Origin: an uncultured Thermoanaerobaculia bacterium
Lineage (GTDB): Bacteria > Acidobacteriota > Thermoanaerobaculia > Thermoanaerobaculales > Sulfomarinibacteraceae
Direction: 5' to 3'
DNA: 64,000 nt
NCBI GenBank assembly: GCA_964641415.1
Contig: CAZXMW010000005.1
Coordinates: forward strand, 14,760-78,759
Part shown: positions 2,305-59,749 of the stretch, one piece after another
How the letters are laid out: each line of letters starts with the position of its first letter
Numbering within the stretch: the stretch's first letter is position 1
Program-made: the position numbers and the translations under genes
The notes under the pieces: generated by a model
What the model saw: the letters and a program-made list of their open reading frames with translations, nothing else
Told to the model about the DNA's origin: nothing
Databases searched by the model: none

Positions 2305-2533
2305 CGCGACTCTCGAGCGGTTCGACGGGCGGCACGAGCCGTCTCAGACGATTTCGGCAACGAGCGCGCTGCGGACGCCGACGCCCTGCGGACCCGAACA
2401 TCGTTTGAGGGGGCAATCGACGAGCCTGGTCGCGGTGGATTGTGGGCGCGAACCGGCGCCGCCGTGGCGAGGCGGAACCGGAAACTCACTGCCGCCGCAT
2501 GGGAGAGGGAGAGGGCTCATCGGGCAAGGGGAC

Positions 2534-2617
2534 CGCCACGGCCACGGATGCGGATACGGCCACGGCCACGGCCACGGACACGGCCACGGCTACGGATACG
2601 GTCAAGGCCACGGCCAT
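2534..2617. repeat. Hexamer microsatellite array 1 (acggNN units: acggcc/acggat/acggac)
   Basis: About 14 tandem 6-nt units can be read directly in non-coding sequence. Confidence 0.85.
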
Positions 2618-2696
2618 GCGCTGCTCGGGCGCCGGCGGCCTTCCTGCTCGCCGGAGCGCACCCCGGAGATCGAGGACTGGGCTCGGTGAGTGCCCC

Positions 2697-2753
2697 CTTG
2701 AACATTGTGAGGAGCGCGATGTGAGCCGGGAGACGCTCGGCACAATGGTCAAG
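2697..2753. other. Imperfect hairpin in the unique core between the two hexamer arrays
   Basis: cttgaacattgtg (2697-2709) is complementary at 12 of 13 positions to cacaatggtcaag (2741-2753). There is an inner 5-bp pair gagcg/cgctc. Confidence 0.6.
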
Positions 2754-2840
2754 ACGGCACATCCGTCCCAAGGCGCCCGTTCCGGCCCTGGAGGGCGGCG
2801 GTCGCTTCGGCGCGCCCGTGGGGGGATCGAGGCGTATCGT

Positions 2841-3000
2841 GCGGATACGGCCACGGACACGGAGACGGATACGGAGACGGATACGGAGACGGATACGGAT
2901 ACGGCCACGGCCACGGATGCGGATACGGATACGGATACGGATACGGATACGGAGACGGATACGGATACGGATACGGACCCGGCCACGGCCACGGACCCGG
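2841..3000. repeat. Hexamer microsatellite array 2 (acggat/acggag/acggcc/acggac, about 26 units), same orientation as array 1
   Basis: The array can be read directly and it abuts the stop codon (3002-3004) of the minus-strand lipoprotein gene. Confidence 0.9.
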
Positions 3001-3001
3001 G

Positions 3002-4441
3002 CTACGAGAACGGCCGTCGGTTCAGAAAGACCCAATCGCCGTCGGCGATGTCGAGAATCTCGGTCTCGCTGTGGACAACGCTGCCGCTCGGGCCGAGGTA
3101 GTCGACGCGGAGCTCGTGTCGTCCCACCGGCAGGCGAAGCCGGGCCACCGACAGCCGGGCGGGCAGAGTCAGCCAGCAGCGGGTATCGGCGCGCTCGGTG
3201 AGGACGCCGAAGAGGTTGACCAGGACTCCGGCAGTGGCGTCCTCGTTGGCGGCCGCTTCGGTCGCGGCGTACTTGACCAGGCCGCGCAGAAAGGCCTTGA
3301 ACAGGATCTGGCCCATCTCGGCCTCGAGGGTCGCCTCGGCGCGCCGCGACAGGTCGTCCGCCGGCAGCGACTCGACGCCGGCGCCGCCGGCGGACAGCCG
3401 AACCGAGGCCACCGGGCCCGGGTCGGCCCTGCCCATGGTCGGGACCGCGACCGTCAGCCAGTACTCGATGTCGACATCGTAGGACCTGGTCCAGCCGGGA
3501 CCGGCGCGGTTGACCAGACCCCAGGCCCAGTCCTCGTTGGACGAGTAGCGGCGATCGATGTCGAGGATCGGGACGTTGAGCTTGACCTGGTCGCGGGGAG
3601 CGATCCAGCCCGACTCGAGGACGAAGACGACCTCGCCTCCGGGCTGCCGAGGTCCGGCCGCCGATGCCGGGAACAGAGCCGTGGCCGTGGCCGTGGCCCG
3701 CAGCTCCTCGACCTCGTCGCGGAAACCGAAGGTCAGCCCGACCCGCTCGAGATCACGGCCGAGATCGACAGGGGGCGCGATCCCGATGAGGTCGCGATGG
3801 GCGAGATAGGCGCGGGCTGCGTTGCGGTAGGCGACGAAGGCGTCGTTCGCCGCGCCTTCGGACTCGAAGATCATGCCGGAGAACCAGTGCAGAAAACCGC
3901 TGTCCTGCAGCTTGCGAGCGATCCTTCGATCGTCCGGCCGCTCGATCCCGCGGATCGTTGCCTCGACCGCGTCGGCAAGGGCGAGCGTCGCCTTGCGAGC
4001 CTCGACCTGGGCGGCGTCCGCGTCGCCGAGCGACAGATAGTTGAAGGCGCGGTAGAAGGGCGCCATGGCGAGCTCGAAGGGCTTGCCGCGGTAGTCGATG
4101 GTGAGGTCGTTGACGATCAGCGACGCGGCAGCCTGGGAGATGCTCCGGGTGTAGAGCTCGGCGGCCAGATCCTCGGCCGCCTGGAAGGCGGCGTTGGACT
4201 CGTCGAAGCGCCCCGCGTAGTGGAGAACGTGGCCGCGCTGGAGCAGCTCGAGCAGCCGGTCGCGGCCGCCCTGACGGGAGTCGATCCGGTCGAGGGCGTT
4301 CTGGTAGTCCCGGGCCTCGAGCATGGTGCGCAGCTCGAGGTTGGAGGCGACATAGCTCGCGCAGCCGGTCGTCAGCGAGACCGCCACGGCCAGGACGGGC
4401 GCGGCGGCCGCCATGGCGCGGCTCCTGACCCTTGGGTTCAT
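3002..4441 (-). CDS. Lipoprotein of unknown function, co-transcribed with lpoB
   Basis: A signal peptide ends in the lipobox LTTGC. The gene starts 8 nt downstream of the lpoB-like gene on the same strand. Confidence 0.7.
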   Translation of the reverse strand: MNPRVRSRAMAAAAPVLAVAVSLTTGCASYVASNLELRTMLEARDYQNALDRIDSRQGGRDRLLELLQRGHVLHYAGRFDESNAAFQAAEDLAAELYTRSISQAAASLIVNDLTIDYRGKPFELAMAPFYRAFNYLSLGDADAAQVEARKATLALADAVEATIRGIERPDDRRIARKLQDSGFLHWFSGMIFESEGAANDAFVAYRNAARAYLAHRDLIGIAPPVDLGRDLERVGLTFGFRDEVEELRATATATALFPASAAGPRQPGGEVVFVLESGWIAPRDQVKLNVPILDIDRRYSSNEDWAWGLVNRAGPGWTRSYDVDIEYWLTVAVPTMGRADPGPVASVRLSAGGAGVESLPADDLSRRAEATLEAEMGQILFKAFLRGLVKYAATEAAANEDATAGVLVNLFGVLTERADTRCWLTLPARLSVARLRLPVGRHELRVDYLGPSGSVVHSETEILDIADGDWVFLNRRPFS

Positions 4442-6266: not shown

Positions 6267-9200
6267 GTGGCAACGAACGTCCGTTTTCCAAGTGTCGCGA
6301 ACCGGCTCGTCTCGGTCCTCGTCGTGCTGTCGGTTGCAGGAGGGTCCGGCGCCGTGCGGGCGGCGCAGCCGGTGTTGGCCGAGTGCGACAGGATCGGTAC
6401 GACTGCCGCGGTGATCCAGCTGGTGCACGATTACGGCGACCTCTGTCTCGTGCGTGTCGTCGGCGAGCCGCCGATCGCGACCGCCCATCGCGTCCACCCG
6501 GTGGCGCCGGTCGGCGCCGTGGGCTTTCGTCACTGGAGCGGCACGACCGTCGACGCCGGCCTGCTGCCGGACGGCGCGCCGATCGTCCTTGGGCTCATCG
6601 GTCCGTTGGATCGAAGGTGGCGGGCCGAGCTGGAGGCGGCCGGGATCGAGATCCTGGCTCCGGCGCACCCGCACGCGCTGGTGATCCGCGGCGACCCCGC
6701 GGCCGCGGCGCGGGTCCTCGGGCTTGAAACCTCGGAGGGCCTGCCGGTCGTCGTGGGTGCCGCCGTGCTGCCCGCCGAAGCCCGGGTCCACCGGTCTCTG
6801 CTGCCGTTGGCGACCGGCTGGGATGCGGCCGACCGCCCCCGGTTGCGGGCGATCGGTTGGGACGGGAGACCGATTCCGGTCGAGACCAAAGACGCGGCGC
6901 CCGGTGGTCTCGCGCGGCTGCTCGACGAGCGCCCCGACATCGGCTACGTCGAGCCGGTGCTCGGTATCGAGCCCCACAACAACCTCGCAGGACGGTCCGA
7001 ACTGCTCGGCGCCGAGGAGCCGTGGAGCCTCGGCTTCGTGGGCGACGGGGTCACGGTGCTGCACAACGACTCGGGGGTGGATCTCGAGCATCCGGGGCTC
7101 GCGGGCGCGATCGTTGCCGCGGCCGGTCGCATGGAGTACTTCGACACGGCGCACGGGACCCACACCGCGGGGTCGATTGTCGGCCGGCCCGCGACGCCCG
7201 CGCCGGTCAACGCCTCGGGATGCGGCGACCTCGTGCCGGGTCTGGAGACGGCGTCCGGCATGGCGCCCGGCGCGGCCTTGGTCACCAATAACATCTTCAA
7301 CGGGGGCTTCGGGGAGATCCCCGAGATGATGGCCTGGGGCGCGGGTCGCGGGGCGCAGCTGAGCAACAACTCGTGGGGGCTGCTCGGGCAGACCGGTCCC
7401 GAGGTCGGCTACAGCGCCGCCGCGGCCGAGGTCGACGCGGCTGTCCGCGATGCGGATCCGGCGACCAGCGGAGACCAGCCGATGACGGTGTTCTTTTCGG
7501 CCGGCAACACCGGTCCCGATCCCGGTACGGTGACCTCTCCGGGAACGGCCAAGAACGCGATCACCGTCGGCGCGGTGCAGAACGCGCGCTGCGGGGCATG
7601 GGTGCCGGCTCAGCAGCCCGGCCCCGACCCGGAGGTGGTCGTCACGAGCTCGGGTCGCGGCCCGTCCCAACTGCGGATCAAGCCCGACCTGGTCGCCCCC
7701 GGCTCGGACGTGATGTCGCTTCAGTCGCAGGACGGTTATGCGATTCAGCTCTGGGACCTGGGCTGGACCGGGCCGCTGCTCGCCCTGAACACCGGCACCT
7801 CACAGGCGTGCGCTCTGGCCACCGGGGCCGGCGCTCTGCTGCACGAGATTCTCTGGAGACACGGCCGAAGCGGCCTGCGACCCAGCCCGGCCCTGCTCAA
7901 GGCGGCGCTGATCGCCACCGCCGATCGGCCGGGCGACGCCGTCGACTCCGACCGGGGCTGGGGCCGGATCGCGCTGTCGCCGGCGCCCACGACCGCCCTG
8001 CCGATCGTCGCGTTCGACCAGGGGGAGACGGCGCAGCTGGCAACCGGCGACCGATGGTCGACCGAAATCGCGGTGCGGTCCGCGGACCGCATCCTCGAGC
8101 TGGCGATGGTCTGGACCGACCCGCCCGGCGAGGCCGACGCCGACCACCCCCTCGTCAACGACCTCGACCTGTTGGTGACGATGCCGTCGGGCGCGGTGCT
8201 GCGCGGCAACGTCTTCGACGGCGGCTGGTCGCGGCCGGACCCGGGCGCGCTGCGCGACGGCGACAACAACGTCGAGGTGGTCCGGGTCGAGCAGCCCGAG
8301 GTCGGCAGCTGGACGGTCGAGGTGGTGGGGGTGGAGGTGGCGGTGCCGCCGGTCGGCCTCGACGGCCAGGACTTCGCCGTGGCAGCGGTCGGCGACGTCG
8401 GCGCCTGTGTCGACCAGCCGCTGCCGCCGGCGGCGGTTCAGGCGGCGCCGGCTGGCGACAACGCCATCGCGGTGACCTGGTCGCCGGTGTCGGGCGCCAC
8501 GCGGTACGAGGTGGCGCGCGCCATTCGTCCCGGCGGGCGCCCCTACCAGGTGGTCGCGACCATCGGCGGCGGGGTCACGTCGGTCGTGGACGCAGGGCTG
8601 TCGGGAGGCACGACCTACTACTACGTGGTGCGGGCCGAAGGGGAGTGCTGGTCGGCCGACTCGTACGAGGTGTCGGCAGCGGCCACCGGGCCGTGCACGA
8701 CGGTGCCCTTGTTCGCCGGCATCGCCTCGGTGACCGGCGTCCCGAGCGCCTCGTGCTCGCTGGAGCTCGCGTGGTCGCCGGCGACCGCCACCTGTCCCGC
8801 GCCTGTGAGCTACGACGTCTACCACGGTTCGACGCCCGACTTCGAGCCTTCCGAGACCAACCGGATCGTCGAGGGCCTGGACGCCGAGACCTGGCTCGAC
8901 CGTGGCCTCGAGCCCGACCGCGAGGCCTTCTACCTGGTTCGCGCGTCGCACGCCGGAAGCGGCGACGACGACGGCAACACCGTGCGGATCGGGGGCCGTC
9001 CCGTCGGACCGGACGAGGCCTACCTGGATCCGATCACCGCGGAGTTCCTGCACACCTGGAATCGCCTTCCCGGGTCCGCGGTCGACCCCGGATCCGAGCC
9101 GTGGCGCAGAACGGAAGATGACGCCTGGGACGGCCTTCGGTCCTGGTTCGTCGCGGACGAGCCCGGGGTCAAGGACCAGGTGCTGGAGCTGCGCGAGCCG

Positions 9201-10829
9201 ATCCCGCTGGTCGAGGGGCAGCCGCCGCGCCTCGAGTTCCACCACCGGATGCGGCTCGACCGGGGCCGCGACGGGGGACGGCTCGAGTACTCCACCAACG
9301 GCGGGCTCGACTGGCACGACATCCGTTCCGGGGACGGCCAGACCGTGCCCGACGGCCCCGGACGCTTCCTCGCCGGCGGTTACACCGACACGATCGCGGC
9401 CCCCGCCAACCCGCTTTATCTCGCGGACGCCTGGTCGGGCGACACCGCGGGCTGGGTCGATACGGTTGTCGATCTCTCCGACCTCGCCGGCCTCCGGATC
9501 CTGCTGCGCTGGCGCTTCGCCGGCGACGACACGCCGGGGGGCGACCGGGGCTGGTGGGTTGACGGTATCCGGCTGGTCGTCGATCGGGAGTGCCAGGACT
9601 GCATCCCGCCCGACCCGCCGCCGTGGCTGTGGTCGACCGCCACCGGGGACGGTGTCGAGCTGAGCTGGCCCGAGGCCCCCGGGGCTGCGACCTATCGGCT
9701 CGATCGCCGGAGCCGGTTGTCGAGCCCCGGCGAGGAGATCGCGAGGGTCGCGGCGCCGCAGACCTTCCACCTCGACGGCGAGGTCTCGGGTGGAACGACC
9801 TACTACTACACCGTCAGAGCCGACGACGGCTGCCTGTCGGACGAGTCGATCATGACGACGGTGACCGCCGTCGGACCGTGCACCCGGGCGCCGGCCTTCT
9901 GGGGTCTCGACGAGGTGGTCGACCGCCGCGAGCCAGGCTGCGCCCTCGACCTCGCCTGGCGGCCGGCCGAGCCGGGCTGTGCCGGCGCCGAGGTCCGGTA
10001 CCGGGTGTACCGGTCGCCGACCGCCGGCTTCGAGCCCGGGCCTGAGACCCTGATTGACGACGGCGTGATCGCAACCCGCGTTCGCGATCTCGGAATCGGC
10101 GACCGCGAGCGCGTCCACTACCGCGTCCGCGCGGTCGACGCCGTCAGCGGCGCCGAAGACGCCAACCCGGTGCTCCAGACCGGTTCGACCACCGGACCCG
10201 ACGAGCTTCTGTTCGAGGACTCGGTGGAGGACGGTGCGGACGGCTGGTGGACCGGCGTCGGGTCGGGCGCCGACAGCGGCACCGAGCCGTGGCGGGTGGT
10301 CGACGACCGCGCCTTCGACGGGACGCACTCCTGGTTCTGCGCCAACGAGCCGCGGGTCAAGGATCAGGTGGTCGGCCTGATCGAGCCGGTGGAGATCACC
10401 GGGTCGACGACGGTGCTCGCCTTGTCCCACCTGTTCGATCTGGAGCCGTTCTGGGACGGCGGCCGGCTCGAGTACTCGACCGATGGCGGCGCCACGTGGC
10501 AGGACATCCTGAGGGGCGGCGGCGGCGCCGTCGGCGACAACCCGAACCGGTTTCTTCGCGGCGGATACAGCGGGTTCGTCAGCTCCGGGACCGGCCATCC
10601 GTTCGGCGGTGAGCCGGCGTGGACCGGCTTCGTCGACGGCTGGTTCGAGACCGTTGTCGATCTCGGCGACTTCGCCGGGCTCACCGTCGCCCTGCGCTGG
10701 CGGCTCGGCTGCGACCGGTCGGACGCCCGGACCGGTTGGTGGCTCGACAACGTCCGGCTGATCCGGACCGTGGCGTGTGAGCCGATCGCGCCACCGGCTC
10801 CGCGAGCCGGTGGCGAACGCCGACCCTGA
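6267..10829 (+). CDS. Secreted S8 (subtilisin-like) serine protease with P-domain-like region, FN3-like domains and a duplicated C-terminal supermodule
   Basis: The catalytic triad context is HNDSGVD (Asp), HGTHTAGS (His) and TGTSQACA (Ser). There is an N-terminal signal peptide and a GTG start. Two roughly 390-aa repeats each end in GGRLEYST.GG..W.DI ... GWW.D..RL. Confidence 0.85.
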   Translation: MATNVRFPSVANRLVSVLVVLSVAGGSGAVRAAQPVLAECDRIGTTAAVIQLVHDYGDLCLVRVVGEPPIATAHRVHPVAPVGAVGFRHWSGTTVDAGLLPDGAPIVLGLIGPLDRRWRAELEAAGIEILAPAHPHALVIRGDPAAAARVLGLETSEGLPVVVGAAVLPAEARVHRSLLPLATGWDAADRPRLRAIGWDGRPIPVETKDAAPGGLARLLDERPDIGYVEPVLGIEPHNNLAGRSELLGAEEPWSLGFVGDGVTVLHNDSGVDLEHPGLAGAIVAAAGRMEYFDTAHGTHTAGSIVGRPATPAPVNASGCGDLVPGLETASGMAPGAALVTNNIFNGGFGEIPEMMAWGAGRGAQLSNNSWGLLGQTGPEVGYSAAAAEVDAAVRDADPATSGDQPMTVFFSAGNTGPDPGTVTSPGTAKNAITVGAVQNARCGAWVPAQQPGPDPEVVVTSSGRGPSQLRIKPDLVAPGSDVMSLQSQDGYAIQLWDLGWTGPLLALNTGTSQACALATGAGALLHEILWRHGRSGLRPSPALLKAALIATADRPGDAVDSDRGWGRIALSPAPTTALPIVAFDQGETAQLATGDRWSTEIAVRSADRILELAMVWTDPPGEADADHPLVNDLDLLVTMPSGAVLRGNVFDGGWSRPDPGALRDGDNNVEVVRVEQPEVGSWTVEVVGVEVAVPPVGLDGQDFAVAAVGDVGACVDQPLPPAAVQAAPAGDNAIAVTWSPVSGATRYEVARAIRPGGRPYQVVATIGGGVTSVVDAGLSGGTTYYYVVRAEGECWSADSYEVSAAATGPCTTVPLFAGIASVTGVPSASCSLELAWSPATATCPAPVSYDVYHGSTPDFEPSETNRIVEGLDAETWLDRGLEPDREAFYLVRASHAGSGDDDGNTVRIGGRPVGPDEAYLDPITAEFLHTWNRLPGSAVDPGSEPWRRTEDDAWDGLRSWFVADEPGVKDQVLELREPIPLVEGQPPRLEFHHRMRLDRGRDGGRLEYSTNGGLDWHDIRSGDGQTVPDGPGRFLAGGYTDTIAAPANPLYLADAWSGDTAGWVDTVVDLSDLAGLRILLRWRFAGDDTPGGDRGWWVDGIRLVVDRECQDCIPPDPPPWLWSTATGDGVELSWPEAPGAATYRLDRRSRLSSPGEEIARVAAPQTFHLDGEVSGGTTYYYTVRADDGCLSDESIMTTVTAVGPCTRAPAFWGLDEVVDRREPGCALDLAWRPAEPGCAGAEVRYRVYRSPTAGFEPGPETLIDDGVIATRVRDLGIGDRERVHYRVRAVDAVSGAEDANPVLQTGSTTGPDELLFEDSVEDGADGWWTGVGSGADSGTEPWRVVDDRAFDGTHSWFCANEPRVKDQVVGLIEPVEITGSTTVLALSHLFDLEPFWDGGRLEYSTDGGATWQDILRGGGGAVGDNPNRFLRGGYSGFVSSGTGHPFGGEPAWTGFVDGWFETVVDLGDFAGLTVALRWRLGCDRSDARTGWWLDNVRLIRTVACEPIAPPAPRAGGERRP

Positions 10830-16422: not shown

Positions 16423-18363
16423 TCATTGGCTCTTGCCCTTGAGGCGGTCGAGCGCCCGGTGGAGGCGCCACGCCTTGGTGCGCTCCATGGCCCCGATCAG
16501 CGCACCGAGCCGCTCGATTTCGGCGTGCAACCGCTCGATCTCGGACGCTCGTTCGTCGCACGCGATCTGCAGGGCCGTCTCCCGCTCGCCGAGACTCTCG
16601 ACCTCCGTTCGAAGCTCCCCGATCAGCTGTTGGCGCTCGCCGATGGCGGCGTTGGCCGCGGCGAGGTCGGCGCCGTGCCGCCTGACCTCGGCGGTCAGGC
16701 GTTCGCGTTCGGCGCGCAATGCCTCGACCTCGCCGTTGAGGCGGTGAGAGGCGTCGGCCGCCGCCGCGTCGGCAGCGCGTACCTTCGCGATGTCGCGCCG
16801 CGCGGCGTTCGCCGCCTCGCCGGCGGTCACCGCCTCGGCGCGCAGGGTGTCGACGACCCGGGCGACGACCTCGGGCCCGATCAGGTCGGCGTGACGGCCG
16901 ATGACCGCCGCCTTGAGGCGAAGGAAGTCCGCCCGACGGCGGGGGCTCTCGCCGAGCACATGGTGAGCAGCGCCCCGAAAGTGCCGGTACTCGGCGGTGA
17001 CCCGAGGCAGGTGGTGGAACGGAACCAGCGCGGCGAGCCGGATCAGGAAGTCCCAGTCCTCGAAGAACTCGAGCTCGGGGTCGAAGGGTCCCGCCCGGCG
17101 CGCCAAGGACAGGTCCATGATCAGGGTGTTGAACGGAATGTAGTTGTCGACGAGGAGCAGCTCGGGGTCGAAGTCTCTGCTGTACGGAAGTCGTCGTTCG
17201 ACCTCGCTCCAGCCGCCCTCCGGGCCGAGCTCGTAGATGCCGACGGCGGCGTCGGTGTAGGCGACGCGGACGTCCGCCGCGGCCACCAGACCGACCAGGG
17301 TGGCGATGTGCTCGGGCTCGACGAGATCGTCGTCGTCGAGAAAGCAGAGATAGGCCCCGGTGGCCGCGTCGACCCCGGCGTTGGCGGCGGCGGCCCGGCC
17401 CAGGGTGCGGCCCGTTTCGACCCGGACGACCGGGAAGGGAAAGTCGGCCGGCACCGTGGGCTCGGCGCCGCCGTCGTTGACCAGGACGATCTCAAGCCGG
17501 CGGTAGCTGCTGGCGGAGAGACTTGCCAGAGCCTCGGCGAGCAGGTCCGGGCGGTCCTTGGTTCGGACGACGACGCTGACGGTCGGACCCGCGGTGTTTG
17601 CCGCGAGCTCGACCATTGCCCCGAGCCGACGTGCCAGCTCGGTCGGGCCCTGGGTCACGATGTCGTTCAGGCCGATCTCGCAGTAGGCCTCGGCGGCGAC
17701 GGTGCCGGTCGGCAGCGACAGTGCCCGGAATCGGCGCATCCCGAGGGCAGCCTCTCGGTAGTTGTGCAGCTCGAGTTGGCTCGCGTGGGCCTCGATGGCG
17801 GCTGCCAGCCGGTCGAGCTCGTCGCTGACGTCGATCAGCAGGTTGGGATAGCTCGGGTGGTTGACCTCATAGAGCAGAATCCGGCACCCGGCCATGATCT
17901 CGTCGAGCTCGGTGCCGCCGCGCAGGGAGGTCAGGGCGAGATGGAGGGCAGTGAAGGCCGCCCGGTGATCGGTGGTGATCTCGCAGGGCGACACCGACAG
18001 AATGAGGTCAGGACGAACGTCGCGGATCGCTCCGGAGGCCGTTTCGGCGGCGGTGTCCACCCAGGCGGCGAGCTCACCGTCAGGGATCGACAGGACCTCC
18101 ATCCGGGAGATGCCCAGGACGCCGAGTCCCTGTCGGGCCTCGGCGCGGCGGCGCGCCCCATAACCCTCTCGGTCGGTGGTGACCTCGCTGCCCCCCGACG
18201 AATCGGTCAGGTAGACGATGCGGATGTCGGCGCCCCGGTCGGCGAGCTGGACGAGCAGACCGCCGCAGCCGAGGACCTCGTCGTCGAAGTGTGGGGCGAG
18301 CACCAGCACGCGTCGGGCGCCGACCGTCGTCGTGGTCGTCGGGGGCATCGGGTCGAGCTGCAT
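16423..18363 (-). CDS. Fusion protein: PIG-L/LmbE-type deacetylase, GT2 glycosyltransferase and a C-terminal coiled coil
   Basis: The PIG-L part reads VLVLAPHFDDEVLGCGG. The GT2 part reads VSVVVRTKDRPDLL...VLVNDGG ... FLDDDD. A heptad-rich tail is present. ATG 18363 precedes the PIG-L domain. Confidence 0.8.
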   Translation of the reverse strand: MQLDPMPPTTTTTVGARRVLVLAPHFDDEVLGCGGLLVQLADRGADIRIVYLTDSSGGSEVTTDREGYGARRRAEARQGLGVLGISRMEVLSIPDGELAAWVDTAAETASGAIRDVRPDLILSVSPCEITTDHRAAFTALHLALTSLRGGTELDEIMAGCRILLYEVNHPSYPNLLIDVSDELDRLAAAIEAHASQLELHNYREAALGMRRFRALSLPTGTVAAEAYCEIGLNDIVTQGPTELARRLGAMVELAANTAGPTVSVVVRTKDRPDLLAEALASLSASSYRRLEIVLVNDGGAEPTVPADFPFPVVRVETGRTLGRAAAANAGVDAATGAYLCFLDDDDLVEPEHIATLVGLVAAADVRVAYTDAAVGIYELGPEGGWSEVERRLPYSRDFDPELLLVDNYIPFNTLIMDLSLARRAGPFDPELEFFEDWDFLIRLAALVPFHHLPRVTAEYRHFRGAAHHVLGESPRRRADFLRLKAAVIGRHADLIGPEVVARVVDTLRAEAVTAGEAANAARRDIAKVRAADAAAADASHRLNGEVEALRAERERLTAEVRRHGADLAAANAAIGERQQLIGELRTEVESLGERETALQIACDERASEIERLHAEIERLGALIGAMERTKAWRLHRALDRLKGKSQ

Positions 18364-18418: not shown

Positions 18419-18579
18419 CCTGAGGTGAACGGTTCTGCCGGATGAGATGTGCCGAGATCGTGATGGGCTGATGGTTGCCGAAAACGGAGGCATACCCTTC
18501 GACGTGTCGAGTCTTTTCGCAGCCATCCAGGGCGCAGGAAATGTGGTGCAGATCGCCGGTGAGAATCGCTCATCTCAGG
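18419..18579 (+). repeat. Copy A of a dispersed, roughly 160-nt repeat family with 10-nt terminal inverted repeats
   Basis: It aligns end to end with 31191-31350, with about 30 mismatches and one 1-nt indel by eye. The termini are cctgaggtga and tcatctcagg. Confidence 0.85.
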
Positions 18580-18627: not shown

Positions 18628-19908
18628 GTGAGCCGGGTGTTCATGATCTGTCCGGAGCCCGTGCGACGGCTCACCGCAGGCGTCGGCACCCGCTTCGTCG
18701 CCATCGCGGGAGTGCTCGGTCAGTGCGGCCATGCGGTGACTCTGGCGATCCCGAATCCTGCCGACGAGGCCGAGGCGGTTCCGGAAGAGGTCACGGTCGT
18801 CACCGCCGAACCGGATCGCATCGGCGTCCAGGCCGACGGCCACGACTGGGTGCTGATCCACGGCCACCTCGGCAACCACTACCTGGCGCAACGGGACGAT
18901 CTGCCGGTGGTGGTCGACCTCTACGACCCGTTCCTGATCGAGAACCTGCACTACCACCACCAGCTCGGATTCGAGCCCTACCGAACGGATCATGCGACCT
19001 GGAAGCTGCAGCTCGGCCGTGGCGACTTCTTCCTGTGCTCATCGTCGGACCAGCGCTACTTCTATCTCGGCTGGCTGGGCGCTCTGGGGCGGGTCAACCC
19101 GTCGATGGTCGATGACGATCCGACTCTGAACCGGCTGATCGCCGAGCTGCCCTTCGGCAGCCCGTCCGGCAACCCGCCGCCGAGGGCTCAGGCGTCAGAT
19201 CTTCTGCCGGGTGTCGGCGCCGGCGCCACCGTGCTCTACTTCGGCGGCATCTACGACTGGTACGATCCCGAGCTGGTGCTCGAAGCTCTGCCGAGGATCC
19301 TCGAGCTGCGGCCCGACGCGATCGTGCTTTTCGTCGACCACCCCCACCCGGAGGCGACGCCGCTTGCCGTCGCCGAACGGACGCGGGCCGAAGCCGAGCG
19401 CCGCGGCTGGCTCGGTACGACGGTCCGTTTCGAGCCCTGGCGCCCCTGGGATCGGCGCTTCGAGCTCGCTTCGGCGTCCGACCTCGCGGTGGTCACCCAC
19501 CGGCCGGGGATCGAGACGGACCTCAGTCTTCGGACCCGCATGGTCGACCTGTTGTGGCTCGGCCTGCCGGTGGTGGCGACGTCCGGCGGCGCCATGTCGG
19601 GGGTGGTCGAGACCATCGGCGCCGGTCGCGTGGTGCCGCCGGGCGATGATCGAGCGCTCGCCGACGCCGTGATCGAGCTGATCGTCGACGACGACCTGCG
19701 CCGCCGGGCCCGAACCGCCGGGCGCGAGTGGGCGGCCGGGCGGTGCTGGCGTGCGGTGTCTCGTCCGCTGCGCGAGTATGCCGCTGCCCCGTGGCGAGAC
19801 CCGCACCGGGACCGGTTCGTCGATCTTTCGCCGGCGGCGAGCTCGGCAACGGAGCCGTGGCGCGTCCGGCTTGATCGTGCGCTGCGCCGCCGGGGCGGCC
19901 GGTCGTGA
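18628..19908 (+). CDS. GT-B fold glycosyltransferase (GT4/GT1-like)
   Basis: The C-terminal half has the typical ...LAVVTHRPGIETDLSLRTRMVDLLWLGLPVVATSGGAMSGVVE... block. A gggagg RBS lies 6 nt before GTG 18628. ATG 18643 is an alternative start. Confidence 0.7.
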   Translation: MSRVFMICPEPVRRLTAGVGTRFVAIAGVLGQCGHAVTLAIPNPADEAEAVPEEVTVVTAEPDRIGVQADGHDWVLIHGHLGNHYLAQRDDLPVVVDLYDPFLIENLHYHHQLGFEPYRTDHATWKLQLGRGDFFLCSSSDQRYFYLGWLGALGRVNPSMVDDDPTLNRLIAELPFGSPSGNPPPRAQASDLLPGVGAGATVLYFGGIYDWYDPELVLEALPRILELRPDAIVLFVDHPHPEATPLAVAERTRAEAERRGWLGTTVRFEPWRPWDRRFELASASDLAVVTHRPGIETDLSLRTRMVDLLWLGLPVVATSGGAMSGVVETIGAGRVVPPGDDRALADAVIELIVDDDLRRRARTAGREWAAGRCWRAVSRPLREYAAAPWRDPHRDRFVDLSPAASSATEPWRVRLDRALRRRGGRS

Positions 19909-30563: not shown

Positions 30564-31184
30564 ATGAGCCCCTTGCGTCCCGGAGGCGGGCGGATCGAGA
30601 TCGTCGCCGGACCGATGTTCTCCGGCAAGTCCGAGGAGCTGATCCGGTTGTTGCGACGTGCCGCCATCGCGCGCCAGCGGATCCAGGTCTTCAAGCCGGC
30701 GCTCGACAACCGCTACGCCGAAGAGGACGTCGTGTCGCACTCTCAGTGGCGGATCCCGTGCCAGGTGGTGGAGAAGGCGGACGAGATTCTGGTCCATCTC
30801 GATCCGCGGACCGAGGTCGTGGGAATTGATGAGGGACAGTTCTTCGACGATCAGTTGCCGAAGGTCTGCGGCCATCTCGCTGACCTCGGCAAGCGCGTGG
30901 TCGTGGCGGGTCTCGACATGGACTACCGGGGGGCGCCCTTCGGGCCCATGCCCGAGCTGCTCGCCATCGCCGAGGACGTCCGGAAGATCCACGCGATCTG
31001 CACCCGCTGCGGCGCGCCGGCGAGCTACACGCAGCGCCTGACCCGAGACGAGCAGCGGGTCCTGGTCGGCGCCACCGATGTCTACGAGGCCAGGTGCCGC
31101 CGGTGCCACGAGCCCGACGGTGGCGCCGGGGACCGGGCGCGCTGGTTGTTCCCGCCGAACCAGGAGACCCCCGAAAGCGGTTGA
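30564..31184 (+). CDS. tdk: Thymidine kinase
   Basis: The P-loop is [11 protein letters not shown], the Walker B-like segment is [10 protein letters not shown], and the zinc ribbon is C.RCG...C..C. Confidence 0.85.
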
Positions 31185-31190
31185 CTGCCG

Positions 31191-31350
31191 CCTGAGGTGA
31201 GCGGTTCTGCTGGATGAGGTGCGCCACAATCCCGATACGCTGGTGGCTGCGAAAAGCGGAGGCATGCCCTTGGGTATGTCGAGTGTTTTTGCGGCCTTTC
31301 AGGGCGCGGGAGACCGGTGCAGATCGTCGGTGAGGATCGCTCATCCCAGG
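31191..31350 (+). repeat. Copy B of the roughly 160-nt repeat family
   Basis: It begins 6 nt after the tdk stop and ends 18 nt before the kinase GTG. The termini are cctgaggtga and tcatcccagg. Confidence 0.85.
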
Positions 31351-31368
31351 CGCCGGTATCATGGACCG

Positions 31369-34017
31369 GTGACCATCGGTGATCTTCATGCCGGCACGGT
31401 TCTCGGGCGCTATCGGCTCGAGGTTTGCATCGGCGAGGGCGGCATGGGCTCGGTGTGGCGGGCGCGCGACGAGGTGCTCGAGCGGGATGTCGCGCTCAAG
31501 GCGCTGCCCCGGCATGTGGTCGTCGACCCGGCGGCGGAACGTCGGTTCGAGCGCGAGGCGCGCGCCATGGGCCGGCTCCAGCATCCCAACGTGGTCGGCA
31601 TCTACGACATCGGACGCGGCGATCCGGGAACCGGAGGAGAGATCCCCTTTCTGGTCATGGAGCTGGTTCGCGGTCGGCCGCTTCATGACGTGATCGCGGC
31701 CGGACGGCCCGGCGTGGGCGAGGTTCTGAGGTGGATGGAGCAGGTTGCCCGGGCGCTCGCCGAGGCCCACGCCGCCGGCATCGTTCACCGCGATCTCAAG
31801 CCGTCCAACATCATGGTCGACGAAACCGGCCACGTGGTCGTGCTCGACTTCGGTCTCGCGCGGCTGACCCGGCAAGACGGCGAGGTCACCGAGGAGACCC
31901 TGACCACTCCGGGCATGGTCCTCGGCTCGTGTCCCTACATGGCGCCGGAGCAGGCGCTCGGCCGGGAGGTGACGCCGGCGAGCGATCTCTTCGCCTTCGG
32001 CGCGGTGCTCTACGAGGCGCTGACCGGGACACGGGCGTTCCACGGCGACACTCCGATGCGGGTGCTCCAGGCCGTGGTGCGCAGCGAGCGGGTTCCGATG
32101 GAGGACCTCGCGCCCGGCCTGCCGACCGCGGTCGTCGAGATCGTCGACCGCTGTCTCGAGCGGGACAGCTCCCGACGCTATCCGAGCGCCGGCGCGCTGG
32201 CCGCCGATCTGGCGGCGGCGGGCGCGATCGAGGCATCGTCGCCGTCGGGTGTTCTCACGACAGTCGTCAGCCACGGTCCGGAGGTTGTGGCGAGTGTGCT
32301 GCGCCGCCGGCGCCGACGTCGCGGTTTCGCCGGCGCCGTGGCGGTCGGGCTTGTCGCCGGCACAGCCGCCGGCCTGTGGTTCGGACGGCGCGGTTACGAG
32401 CCGATCCGCCCGGACCCCGGGCGCTGGACGATGACCGAACTCTACCGGGGCAGCGGGGACCTCGACCGTCCGGCATGGAGCCCGGGAGGCGACAGCCTGG
32501 CGGTCGCCCGGACCGAGGGCGACACCGGCGTCGTGGTGGTGGTTCCGGTGAGCGGTGACGACCCGAGAGTGCTGGTCCGGGGCGGCAGCCACGAAGTGCC
32601 GAGTCGGCCGAGCTTCTCGCCGGAAGCAGCGGCGGTTGCGGTGTCGGTCATCAGTGGCAGCTCTCAATCGGTTCACGTGGTCCCGGCCGTGGGAGGGCCA
32701 CCGGCGTACGAGATCGAGAACGCGCTGCACGGCGTCTGGCTCGACCGTTCGACCCTCGCCTTCTCCCGGCTGGTCGATGGAAGGTCGGCGATCTGGACCG
32801 TCGAGCTGGAAACCGGGCGCGAGGGACTGCTCGTCGACGAGCGCGACGGCCTGTCGTGGTGGGAAGTGGTTCCGCGACCGGGTGGCGGCCTGGCGCTGGT
32901 CGGTGGCGCGACCGACATCGATCCCGGGATCTTCGTCAGCGACGCCGCCGGAGATCGAGTCGACCAGTGGCTGGCGCCGGGGCGCAAGGTACAGGGCGCC
33001 GACTGGGCCCCCGGCGGAGCGGTTCTCGTGGCCTCGGTGGACGGCCAATTGGTCAAGCTCGACGGTACCCGGGTGAGCCCCCTGCTCCCCGATTCGGACG
33101 AGGTCTTCCAGTTTCCTGCGTTTTCCGACGACGGCCGGCTCGCGGCCGTGCAGAACCGCCGGACCTACGACATCATCAGCGTCGATCCGGACGGTGGCGG
33201 TTGGGAATGCCTGGTGTGCGACAGGCCTCGATCGGGGTGGGGCAGCGCGGGATCCGATGGTTCGGTTGTCTACCGGTTGACGGTCGGGGACAGCTCCCGC
33301 GTATATCTGCGCGCGCCCGGCATCGAGGCGCGCGCGCTGACGACGCCGGACGAAATGGCCTCGTGTCCGGTGATGTCACCGGACGCGATCCGCGTCGCCT
33401 ATCTGGCTCGTGTCGAAGGCAGCACCGAGCTTCGGGTCCGGCCCCGGTCGGGTGGCGATCCGGTGACCCTGGCGCGTGACGTCGAGAGCTCCGAGCTCGT
33501 CGCATGGTCGCCCGACGGGCGCAGCATCGCCTACGCCGGCGGCCGGCCTCTTCAGGTATTCGTCGTGTCGACGGCCGGCGGGACTCCGCGGGCCGTCAGC
33601 CCGAGCGGCGGCGACTATCCGAGCTGGAGCCCGGATGGGCGGTTGATCGCATTCGCGGTCTGGAACGAAGCGTCGGACCCTGCCCAGGGAACGTGGGTGG
33701 TCGCAAGCGGCGGCGGCGAACCGCGCAAGGTCGGTGAGGCGCCGACGCGAGCGGTGTGGGATCCGGTCACCGGCGAGCTTCTGCAGCTTCGTCGGTCGGC
33801 CGACGGCGCGGTGCTCGAGCTGTGGAGCGCCGATTCCGGGCGATGGAGATGGCGCCGACGCGCGGAGCTGGACATCGGGGTGAGGCCTCCGATCCAGATC
33901 GAGTATCTGCCGCTGTCGACCGATTGGCGCACCGGACGACTCGTGATGAACCGGAGGTCGGGCACGGGGCGGTTGGTCGTCTTTGACGGCATCGAGCCGG
34001 AGCGCTGGGAAAGGTGA
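31369..34017 (+). CDS. Ser/Thr protein kinase with TM segment and C-terminal TolB-like (PD40/WD40-like) beta-propeller repeats
   Basis: The kinase motifs are GEGGMGSVWRA, VALK, HRDLKPSNIM, DFGLA and APE. The C-terminus has repeated SPDG/WSPDG propeller motifs. Confidence 0.85.
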   Translation: MTIGDLHAGTVLGRYRLEVCIGEGGMGSVWRARDEVLERDVALKALPRHVVVDPAAERRFEREARAMGRLQHPNVVGIYDIGRGDPGTGGEIPFLVMELVRGRPLHDVIAAGRPGVGEVLRWMEQVARALAEAHAAGIVHRDLKPSNIMVDETGHVVVLDFGLARLTRQDGEVTEETLTTPGMVLGSCPYMAPEQALGREVTPASDLFAFGAVLYEALTGTRAFHGDTPMRVLQAVVRSERVPMEDLAPGLPTAVVEIVDRCLERDSSRRYPSAGALAADLAAAGAIEASSPSGVLTTVVSHGPEVVASVLRRRRRRRGFAGAVAVGLVAGTAAGLWFGRRGYEPIRPDPGRWTMTELYRGSGDLDRPAWSPGGDSLAVARTEGDTGVVVVVPVSGDDPRVLVRGGSHEVPSRPSFSPEAAAVAVSVISGSSQSVHVVPAVGGPPAYEIENALHGVWLDRSTLAFSRLVDGRSAIWTVELETGREGLLVDERDGLSWWEVVPRPGGGLALVGGATDIDPGIFVSDAAGDRVDQWLAPGRKVQGADWAPGGAVLVASVDGQLVKLDGTRVSPLLPDSDEVFQFPAFSDDGRLAAVQNRRTYDIISVDPDGGGWECLVCDRPRSGWGSAGSDGSVVYRLTVGDSSRVYLRAPGIEARALTTPDEMASCPVMSPDAIRVAYLARVEGSTELRVRPRSGGDPVTLARDVESSELVAWSPDGRSIAYAGGRPLQVFVVSTAGGTPRAVSPSGGDYPSWSPDGRLIAFAVWNEASDPAQGTWVVASGGGEPRKVGEAPTRAVWDPVTGELLQLRRSADGAVLELWSADSGRWRWRRRAELDIGVRPPIQIEYLPLSTDWRTGRLVMNRRSGTGRLVVFDGIEPERWER

Positions 34018-46674: not shown

Positions 46675-46727
46675 TCCTCAGATGAGCGACTGTCACCGGC
46701 GATCTGCACCAATCTGGACGGTTGCGA
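46675..46727 (-). repeat. Partial copy C (3' part, inverted) of the roughly 160-nt repeat family
   Basis: The plus strand cctcagatgagcgactgtcaccggcgatctgcacc is the near reverse complement of the copy A 3' end. There is an internal deletion relative to A. Confidence 0.7.
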
Positions 46728-46752
46728 CGATCGCGTGAGGCCGCCCGGTCTG

Positions 46753-46786
46753 CAGTCAAGAATATACTTGACAAAGAAACACTCAG
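46753..46786. promoter_or_regulatory. HAIR-like HspR operator half-sites overlapping the dnaK promoter
   Basis: CTTGACA-N7-ACTCAGG (46766-46786) compares with the HAIR consensus CTTGAGT-N7-ACTCAAG. There is also an upstream GTCAAG-N6-CTTGAC inverted repeat. Confidence 0.55.
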
Positions 46787-59684: not shown

Positions 59685-59749
59685 CCTCGGGTGAGCGATT
59701 CTCACGGGAAGTGAAATCTGCAGCACATCTGGGCGCGAAAAATCCACAC
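59685..59749 (-). repeat. Partial, diverged copy D (inverted) of the roughly 160-nt repeat family
   Basis: The plus strand cctcgggtgagcgattctcac...atctgcagcacat matches the reverse complement of copy A (cctgagatgagcgattctcac...atctgcaccacat). Confidence 0.6.

Follow-up and report, generated by a model that had tools for sequence, protein, structure and literature searches.

A previously undescribed 160-bp MITE of Thermoanaerobaculia very probably accounts for the structured spacer between tdk and a Ser/Thr kinase gene

The repeat that separates a thymidine kinase gene (tdk) from a Ser/Thr kinase gene in the 64,000-nt window (the whole stretch of DNA analyzed here) is very probably an insertion of a 160-bp MITE of Thermoanaerobaculia (Acidobacteriota) that had not been described before. 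The element is ordinary selfish DNA, common in marine-sediment Acidobacteriota, rather than a regulator dedicated to the kinase. The family is a MITE of known type, i.e., a hairpin-forming bacterial MITE like ERIC and Correia, and literature searches did not find a description of this 160-nt repeat. It combines the features by which MITEs are recognized: non-coding copies of less than about 500 bp, terminal inverted repeats, a TSD of fixed length, dispersed copies, and filled as well as empty sites. Such an insertion accounts for the unusual length and the structure of the kinase gene “leader” and averts its mis-annotation as a riboswitch, a small ORF, or an N-terminal extension. On the best reading, this copy (copy B) is a passive and old insertion.

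Copy B is full length and lies on the plus strand at 31191–31350, with 77.5% identity to the family consensus and an nhmmer E-value of 3e-39 against the family profile. Its position in the preliminary description was exact. The plus-strand tdk gene (30564–31184; Pfam TK, E 2e-53) ends in a stop codon at 31182–31184, six nucleotides (CTGCCG) follow, and the element runs from 31191 to 31350, 18 nt before a GTG at 31369. This GTG opens a plus-strand gene (31369–34017) whose product is a Ser/Thr kinase (Pfam Pkinase, E 1.5e-41) that carries beta-propeller repeats (Pfam PD40) at its C terminus. The plus-strand termini of copy B, CCTGAGGTGAGCGGTTCTGCTGG at 31191–31213 and CGGTGAGGATCGCTCATCCCAGG at 31328–31350, are inverted repeats that pair with each other.

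Comparison with related genomes identifies the junction without the element. Homologs of tdk are abundant in Thermoanaerobaculales and Sulfomarinibacteraceae, with identities of up to 93%, and the tdk-kinase gene order is conserved in relatives. In locus L035, where tdk is 92% identical, the 19-nt spacer reads tga-C-CGTCG-GTATCATGGGCGG-GTG and contains a single CGTCG, whereas the window, where the site is filled, has tga-C-TGCCG-(160 nt)-CGCCG-GTATCATGGACCG-GTG. Spacers of 30 nt (L037), 26 nt (L038), and 19 nt (P0001 contig) occur in other relatives, and nhmmer searches found the element absent from L035–L038 and from L161. The left TSD copy (TGCCG, 31186–31190) and the right one (CGCCG, 31351–31355) agree at 4/5 positions, an assignment supported by the L035 empty site and by family-wide TSD statistics. 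Empty orthologous junctions together with the flanking 5-bp duplication thus mark copy B as an insertion into a very short intercistronic spacer. The kinase GTG occupies the same position after GGTATCATGGnCGG in the window and in L035, and the original 13 nt that precede it, as in relatives, are intact downstream of the insertion. The earlier proposal that the element essentially constitutes the kinase leader is not supported, as the orthologous tdk-kinase junctions have 19–30-nt spacers without it.

A second full-length copy in the window, copy A (18419–18579, plus strand; 82% identity to the consensus, nhmmer E 1.4e-41), lies between two divergently oriented genes, a PIG-L/GT2 gene (16426–18363, minus) and a GT4 glycosyltransferase gene (~18628–19908, plus). 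The element is missing from this locus in relative L161, whose GT4 is 82% identical, and homology to the window picks up again right at its 3′ edge. The similarity of copies A and B noted in the preliminary description was reproduced, with 129/162 aligned positions identical (80%) and 33 substitutions (26 transitions and 7 transversions), as was the 1-nt indel between them, at position 124 of B, about 36 nt from the 3′ end. Chance expectation for element cores (17–30-mers) is 0.00–0.06 occurrences in the window. Copies A and B are the most diverged of the sample, and the TSD of copy A is degenerate (2/5). Both insertions are old and probably immobile.

Across the family, the flanking 5-nt sequences match only in a 5-nt register. 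Among 28 copies, 102/140 positions match, compared with 50.9±5.1 after shuffling; the 94 non-redundant copies give 323/470 matching positions vs 176±9 shuffled, and 22 of them carry perfect TSDs where 0.9 are expected. The target consensus is C-TNNNA-G (hyphens mark the edges of the TSD), and the TSDs have a GC content of 0.32 vs 0.62 for the loci.

The nhmmer profile of the family parted the copies cleanly. A pattern scan for the 3′ arm across species-representative genomes yielded 34 loci in 11 MAGs, with up to 13 copies per MAG. The host MAGs belong to Acidobacteriota, Thermoanaerobaculales, and Ca. Sulfomarinibacter, with the exception of one MAG labelled Deltaproteobacteria. A scan with the 5′ 18-mer gave at least 120 metagenome loci, and the profile search returned 74 full-length copies among the matches listed. 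Copies measure 158–162 nt, with a median identity to the consensus of 90%. Family boundaries are sharp: similarity ends at CCTAAG...CTTAGG, and the flanks beyond are unrelated. The consensus reads CCTAAGATGAGCGATTCT...AGAATCGCTCATCTTAGG, in which the outer 18 bp form a perfect inverted repeat; the inverted-repeat ends read CCTAAGATGAGCG.... Many copies lie at contig ends, showing that the repeat breaks MAG assemblies. Two MAGs carry copies at the same orthologous site (L005, 3553–3713; L016, 4903–5062), where the flanks are alike and the gene downstream starts at the same point, so some insertions are older than the divergence of these species-level MAGs. These uncultivated, ecologically important marine-sediment Acidobacteriota harbor a well-defined MITE family, with a consensus, a 5-bp TSD, a target motif, and mini-derivatives.

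The mini-derivatives retain only the ends of the element. Forms of 44–78 nt recur at unrelated loci with their own 5-bp TSDs (L087, L091, L101, L145, L098, and L072); the 44-nt form joins positions 1–24 to 141–160, and further forms measure 66–78 nt. Recurrence of the 44-nt derivatives with TSDs indicates that about 20 bp of each end appears sufficient for mobilization. In L098, a minus-strand gene that by eye resembles the one for ribosomal protein S7 lies between a full copy (2271–2430) and a 44-nt mini copy (2918–2961) flanked by a perfect TCCTA duplication. Solo 3′ arms (profile positions ~100–160) are several-fold commoner than solo 5′ arms (L050 and L063). They occur at L031, L039, L061, L074, L115, L139, L147, and L156, as well as in the window at 46677–46751 and 59686–59728. 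This excess may reflect detection bias, one-ended events, or preferential retention. Just 3′ of the solo 3′ arm in L031 (~975–1100), the sequence GGGAAGACGGTGCGAATCCG...CCACTG resembles a cobalamin riboswitch core.

For mobilization, we infer a DDE-type transposase acting in trans, which would bind the ~20-bp ends, cut with a 5-bp stagger, and insert the element. Judging from the 44–78-nt derivatives, the ends alone would be needed. The autonomous partner was not found in the ~0.9 Mb of flanks around the collected loci. Pairs of terminal repeats 0.25–6 kb apart occurred only at L065, with etfAB between them, and at L098, with rpsG between the full and the mini copy; neither pair enclosed a transposase. 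Sequences adjoining the solo ends are mutually unrelated, and that route did not lead to the partner either. A scan of viral contigs gave one chance 18-mer and no element.

Known systems offer partial parallels. ERIC elements of enterobacteria and Correia/NEMIS elements of Neisseria are MITEs that form imperfect palindromes over their whole length and give RNA hairpins when co-transcribed. The present family shares with them a size of 100–160 bp, terminal inverted repeats, a TSD, copies of either orientation scattered through intergenic and intercistronic DNA, a hairpin that spans the whole element, and short internally deleted variants. It differs from them in having no sequence similarity and in its host lineage, Thermoanaerobaculia. 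Correia elements use a TA dinucleotide, unlike the 5-bp TSD of this family at its own target motif. RNase III processing and promoter creation are documented for Correia elements.

Two families of transposable elements bear on the source of the transposase. ISEcp1, of the IS1380 family, generates 5-bp duplications of AT-rich targets, e.g., TATGA, and Tn3-like transposons give 5-bp repeats and end in the 38-bp inverted repeats of the Tn3 family (PMC2887853). The 5-bp AT-rich TSD of the present family resembles that of ISEcp1; a transposase gene with these ends was not found in the collected loci. IS1380-family ends begin with CC (CCTAGAT... in ISEcp1), a possible likeness to the CCTAAGAT with which this element begins. 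These CC-starting ends would make an IS1380-like source the favored candidate. Tn3-family ends typically start with GGGG. Like Tn3-derived TIMEs, the present element is non-autonomous and has a 5-bp TSD; unlike in TIMEs, CCTAAG opens its ends, of which some 20 bp appear to suffice in the 44-nt derivatives.

The element has a pronounced secondary structure. The plus-strand RNA folds into one long, near-continuous rod hairpin of 59–70 bp, with -89.3 kcal/mol (z -6.3) for copy B and -75.4 kcal/mol (z -5.1) for copy A, whereas the minus strands reach about -50 kcal/mol (z -1.3 and -1.5). The preliminary description had placed the conservation at the nucleotide or RNA level, and the family alignment bears this out. 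Pairing of the long hairpin is kept, with 96.4% of cells paired over 59 consensus pairs. Changes on both sides of a pair, which are compensatory, affect 16 pairs vs 8.1±1.6 in shuffled and 3–5 in slid controls. Copies A and B diverge by 20%, and yet 53 of the 59 pairs persist in A and 55 in B; 17 pairs differ between them, and in 9 of these both copies are still paired.

The two strands are not equivalent. The plus strand is the more stable in 28/28 copies (mean -98.6 vs -75.3 kcal/mol), and the consensus rod contains 8 G·U pairs and zero A·C oppositions within helices. Variant types that create G·U or A·C number 50 vs 45, at similar frequency. Among the types present in at least 4 copies, 16 create G·U and 4 create A·C (Mann-Whitney p = 0.002). 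Selection acting on a single strand, as RNA or ssDNA, might underlie this asymmetry, as might inheritance from successful master copies or strand-biased mutation. Purely selfish DNA would not readily account for it.

At the tdk-kinase junction, the element would have landed in a ~19-nt spacer. Because the gene pair is probably co-transcribed, the element probably belongs to the joint transcript, in which it would form a very stable, near-continuous 60–70-bp hairpin. The effect on the kinase would most likely be small or incidental, i.e., a dsRNA segment with possible RNase III cutting or altered mRNA stability. The suggestion that the element is a purpose-built insulator, terminator, or attenuator is not supported: the element occurs in unrelated contexts and in either orientation, and its terminator-like feature is not conserved. 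That weak feature, an 8-bp hairpin at the apex of the rod with GAGTGTTTTT after it (31261–31280, plus strand), was flagged by the terminator scan in copy B alone and was rejected as an intrinsic terminator, the T-run not being conserved in the family (ATTTTC in the consensus and ATCGTC in one subfamily). A promoter-like site was not found in copy B. Any effect on read-through from tdk to the kinase would be a by-product. Filled and empty tdk-kinase junctions nonetheless constitute a natural experiment on how a 60–70-bp RNA hairpin in an intercistronic spacer influences operon expression.

The alternative that survives best, although unlikely, is an exapted MITE, which arrived by transposition and was kept for a useful one-strand RNA hairpin. 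Such a hairpin could serve as a module for RNase III processing or for stability, or as a partial terminator or insulator uncoupling the kinase from tdk. The greater stability of the plus strand in every copy, the G·U pairs without A·C oppositions together with the wider distribution of G·U-creating variants, the compensatory covariation, the pairs that copies A and B retain, and the apical hairpin and T-run of copy B all fit this scenario. However, orientation relative to flanking genes, called by a crude codon-position GC method, is random (60 copies on the same strand and 62 on the opposite one), with 10 sense vs 14 antisense copies between co-directional, probably co-transcribed genes, which argues against an orientation-dependent cis role. 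The lack of the T-run in other subfamilies and of a promoter-like site counts against exaptation as well, and relatives manage without the element at this junction. Moreover, the G·U pairs held in common may simply descend from a master copy, and compensatory changes in a palindrome can arise by template switching without selection.

A related and slightly more doubtful possibility extends to the whole family: the rod might be a mobile structured-RNA module that rewires expression at operon spacers. The one-sided wobble pattern (the 8 G·U pairs, the wider distribution of G·U-creating variants, and the more stable plus strand of every copy) would then mean that selection acts on one strand as RNA or ssDNA. 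If so, the family would scatter, for example, a portable dsRNA processing site or a small-RNA source into spacers like that between tdk and the kinase.

We consider it very unlikely that the element is a riboswitch or attenuator acting as a dedicated cis-regulatory RNA leader for the kinase, or that it belongs to a stand-alone family of structured small-RNA genes. The strong z-scores confined to the plus strand, the covariation, and the end of copy B 18 nt before the kinase start would suit such a role. The empty sites largely refute it, as the element is missing from orthologous kinase leaders; copies also sit beside unrelated genes in both orientations and are flanked by TSDs, and promoter and terminator are unconserved. 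Rfam searches, at the gathering score and at E-values up to 10, returned no matching family, with chance-level matches (E 0.8–6) around copy B.

Even less credible is a REP/REPIN palindromic repeat spread by a RAYT, an IS200/IS605-like tyrosine transposase. The element is likewise a high-copy, dispersed intergenic repeat that forms a long hairpin, and its single-strand fold is strand-specific. Yet it shows a clear 5-bp TSD, and the REPIN and IS200/IS605 mechanism makes none. Its ends read CCTAAG instead of the GTAG or CGTC heads given for REP superfamilies (PMC3733652). An unsystematic look at the flanks noticed no RAYT gene.

A small protein-coding module, either as an ORF in the frame noted earlier or as an in-frame N-terminal extension of the kinase, can be practically dismissed. 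As the preliminary description stated, the ORFs at 18447.. and 31219.. lie in one frame. Both begin at element offset 28. In most copies, this frame stays open for ~50 codons beyond codon 3, and that of copy B continues into the kinase ORF (31219–34017), where gene callers could annotate a false 50-residue N-terminal extension. Orthologous kinases start at the GTG 3′ of the insertion point, so that such an extension would be a false annotation. Nearly all copies have a TGA at codon 3 of the frame, frameshifting indels affect 5/28 copies and separate A from B, and the translated consensus has no Pfam match. The substitutions between A and B are spread over codon positions 1/2/3 (13/8/12), as first reported. 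Statistics over 94 non-redundant copies extend this observation, with equal variability of 0.094/0.106/0.093 and no excess at third positions. The earlier judgment that conservation is not at the protein level therefore stands.

Two further traces of the family, additional to the A/B pair described earlier, lie on the minus strand of the window. Partial copy C (46677–46751; nhmmer E 1.2e-8) is an inverted-repeat match covering profile positions 74–159 with an internal deletion. It contains a 30-mer match with 2 mismatches and has a DUF4388 gene on one side and, on the other, the promoter region upstream of dnaK. Relic D of a 3′ arm (…GTGAGAATCGCTCAcCcgAGG; 59686–59728) covers profile positions 122–159 at an nhmmer E of 0.05, a weak match that is marginal alone.

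Other features of the window were observed alongside the repeat. In the stretch at 46755–46772, and up to ~46790, which precedes dnaK (start 46832), GTCAAG-N6-CTTGAC forms a perfect inverted repeat that overlaps CTTGACAAAGAAACACTCAGG. It resembles the HspR-binding HAIR motif (CTTGAGT-N7-ACTCAAG), and this would suggest HspR control of dnaK. The sole Rfam match at gathering score in the window is a tRNA gene at 1205–1276 (74 bits). A long array with a 6-nt period (CGGATA, CGGCCA, and CGGAGA units) extends over 2503–3015 in two blocks; it may encode a low-complexity repeat or else be non-coding and microsatellite-like. The segments at 9122–9527 and 10310–10715, which are ~73% identical and 1188 nt apart, are probably tandem paralogous genes or domains.
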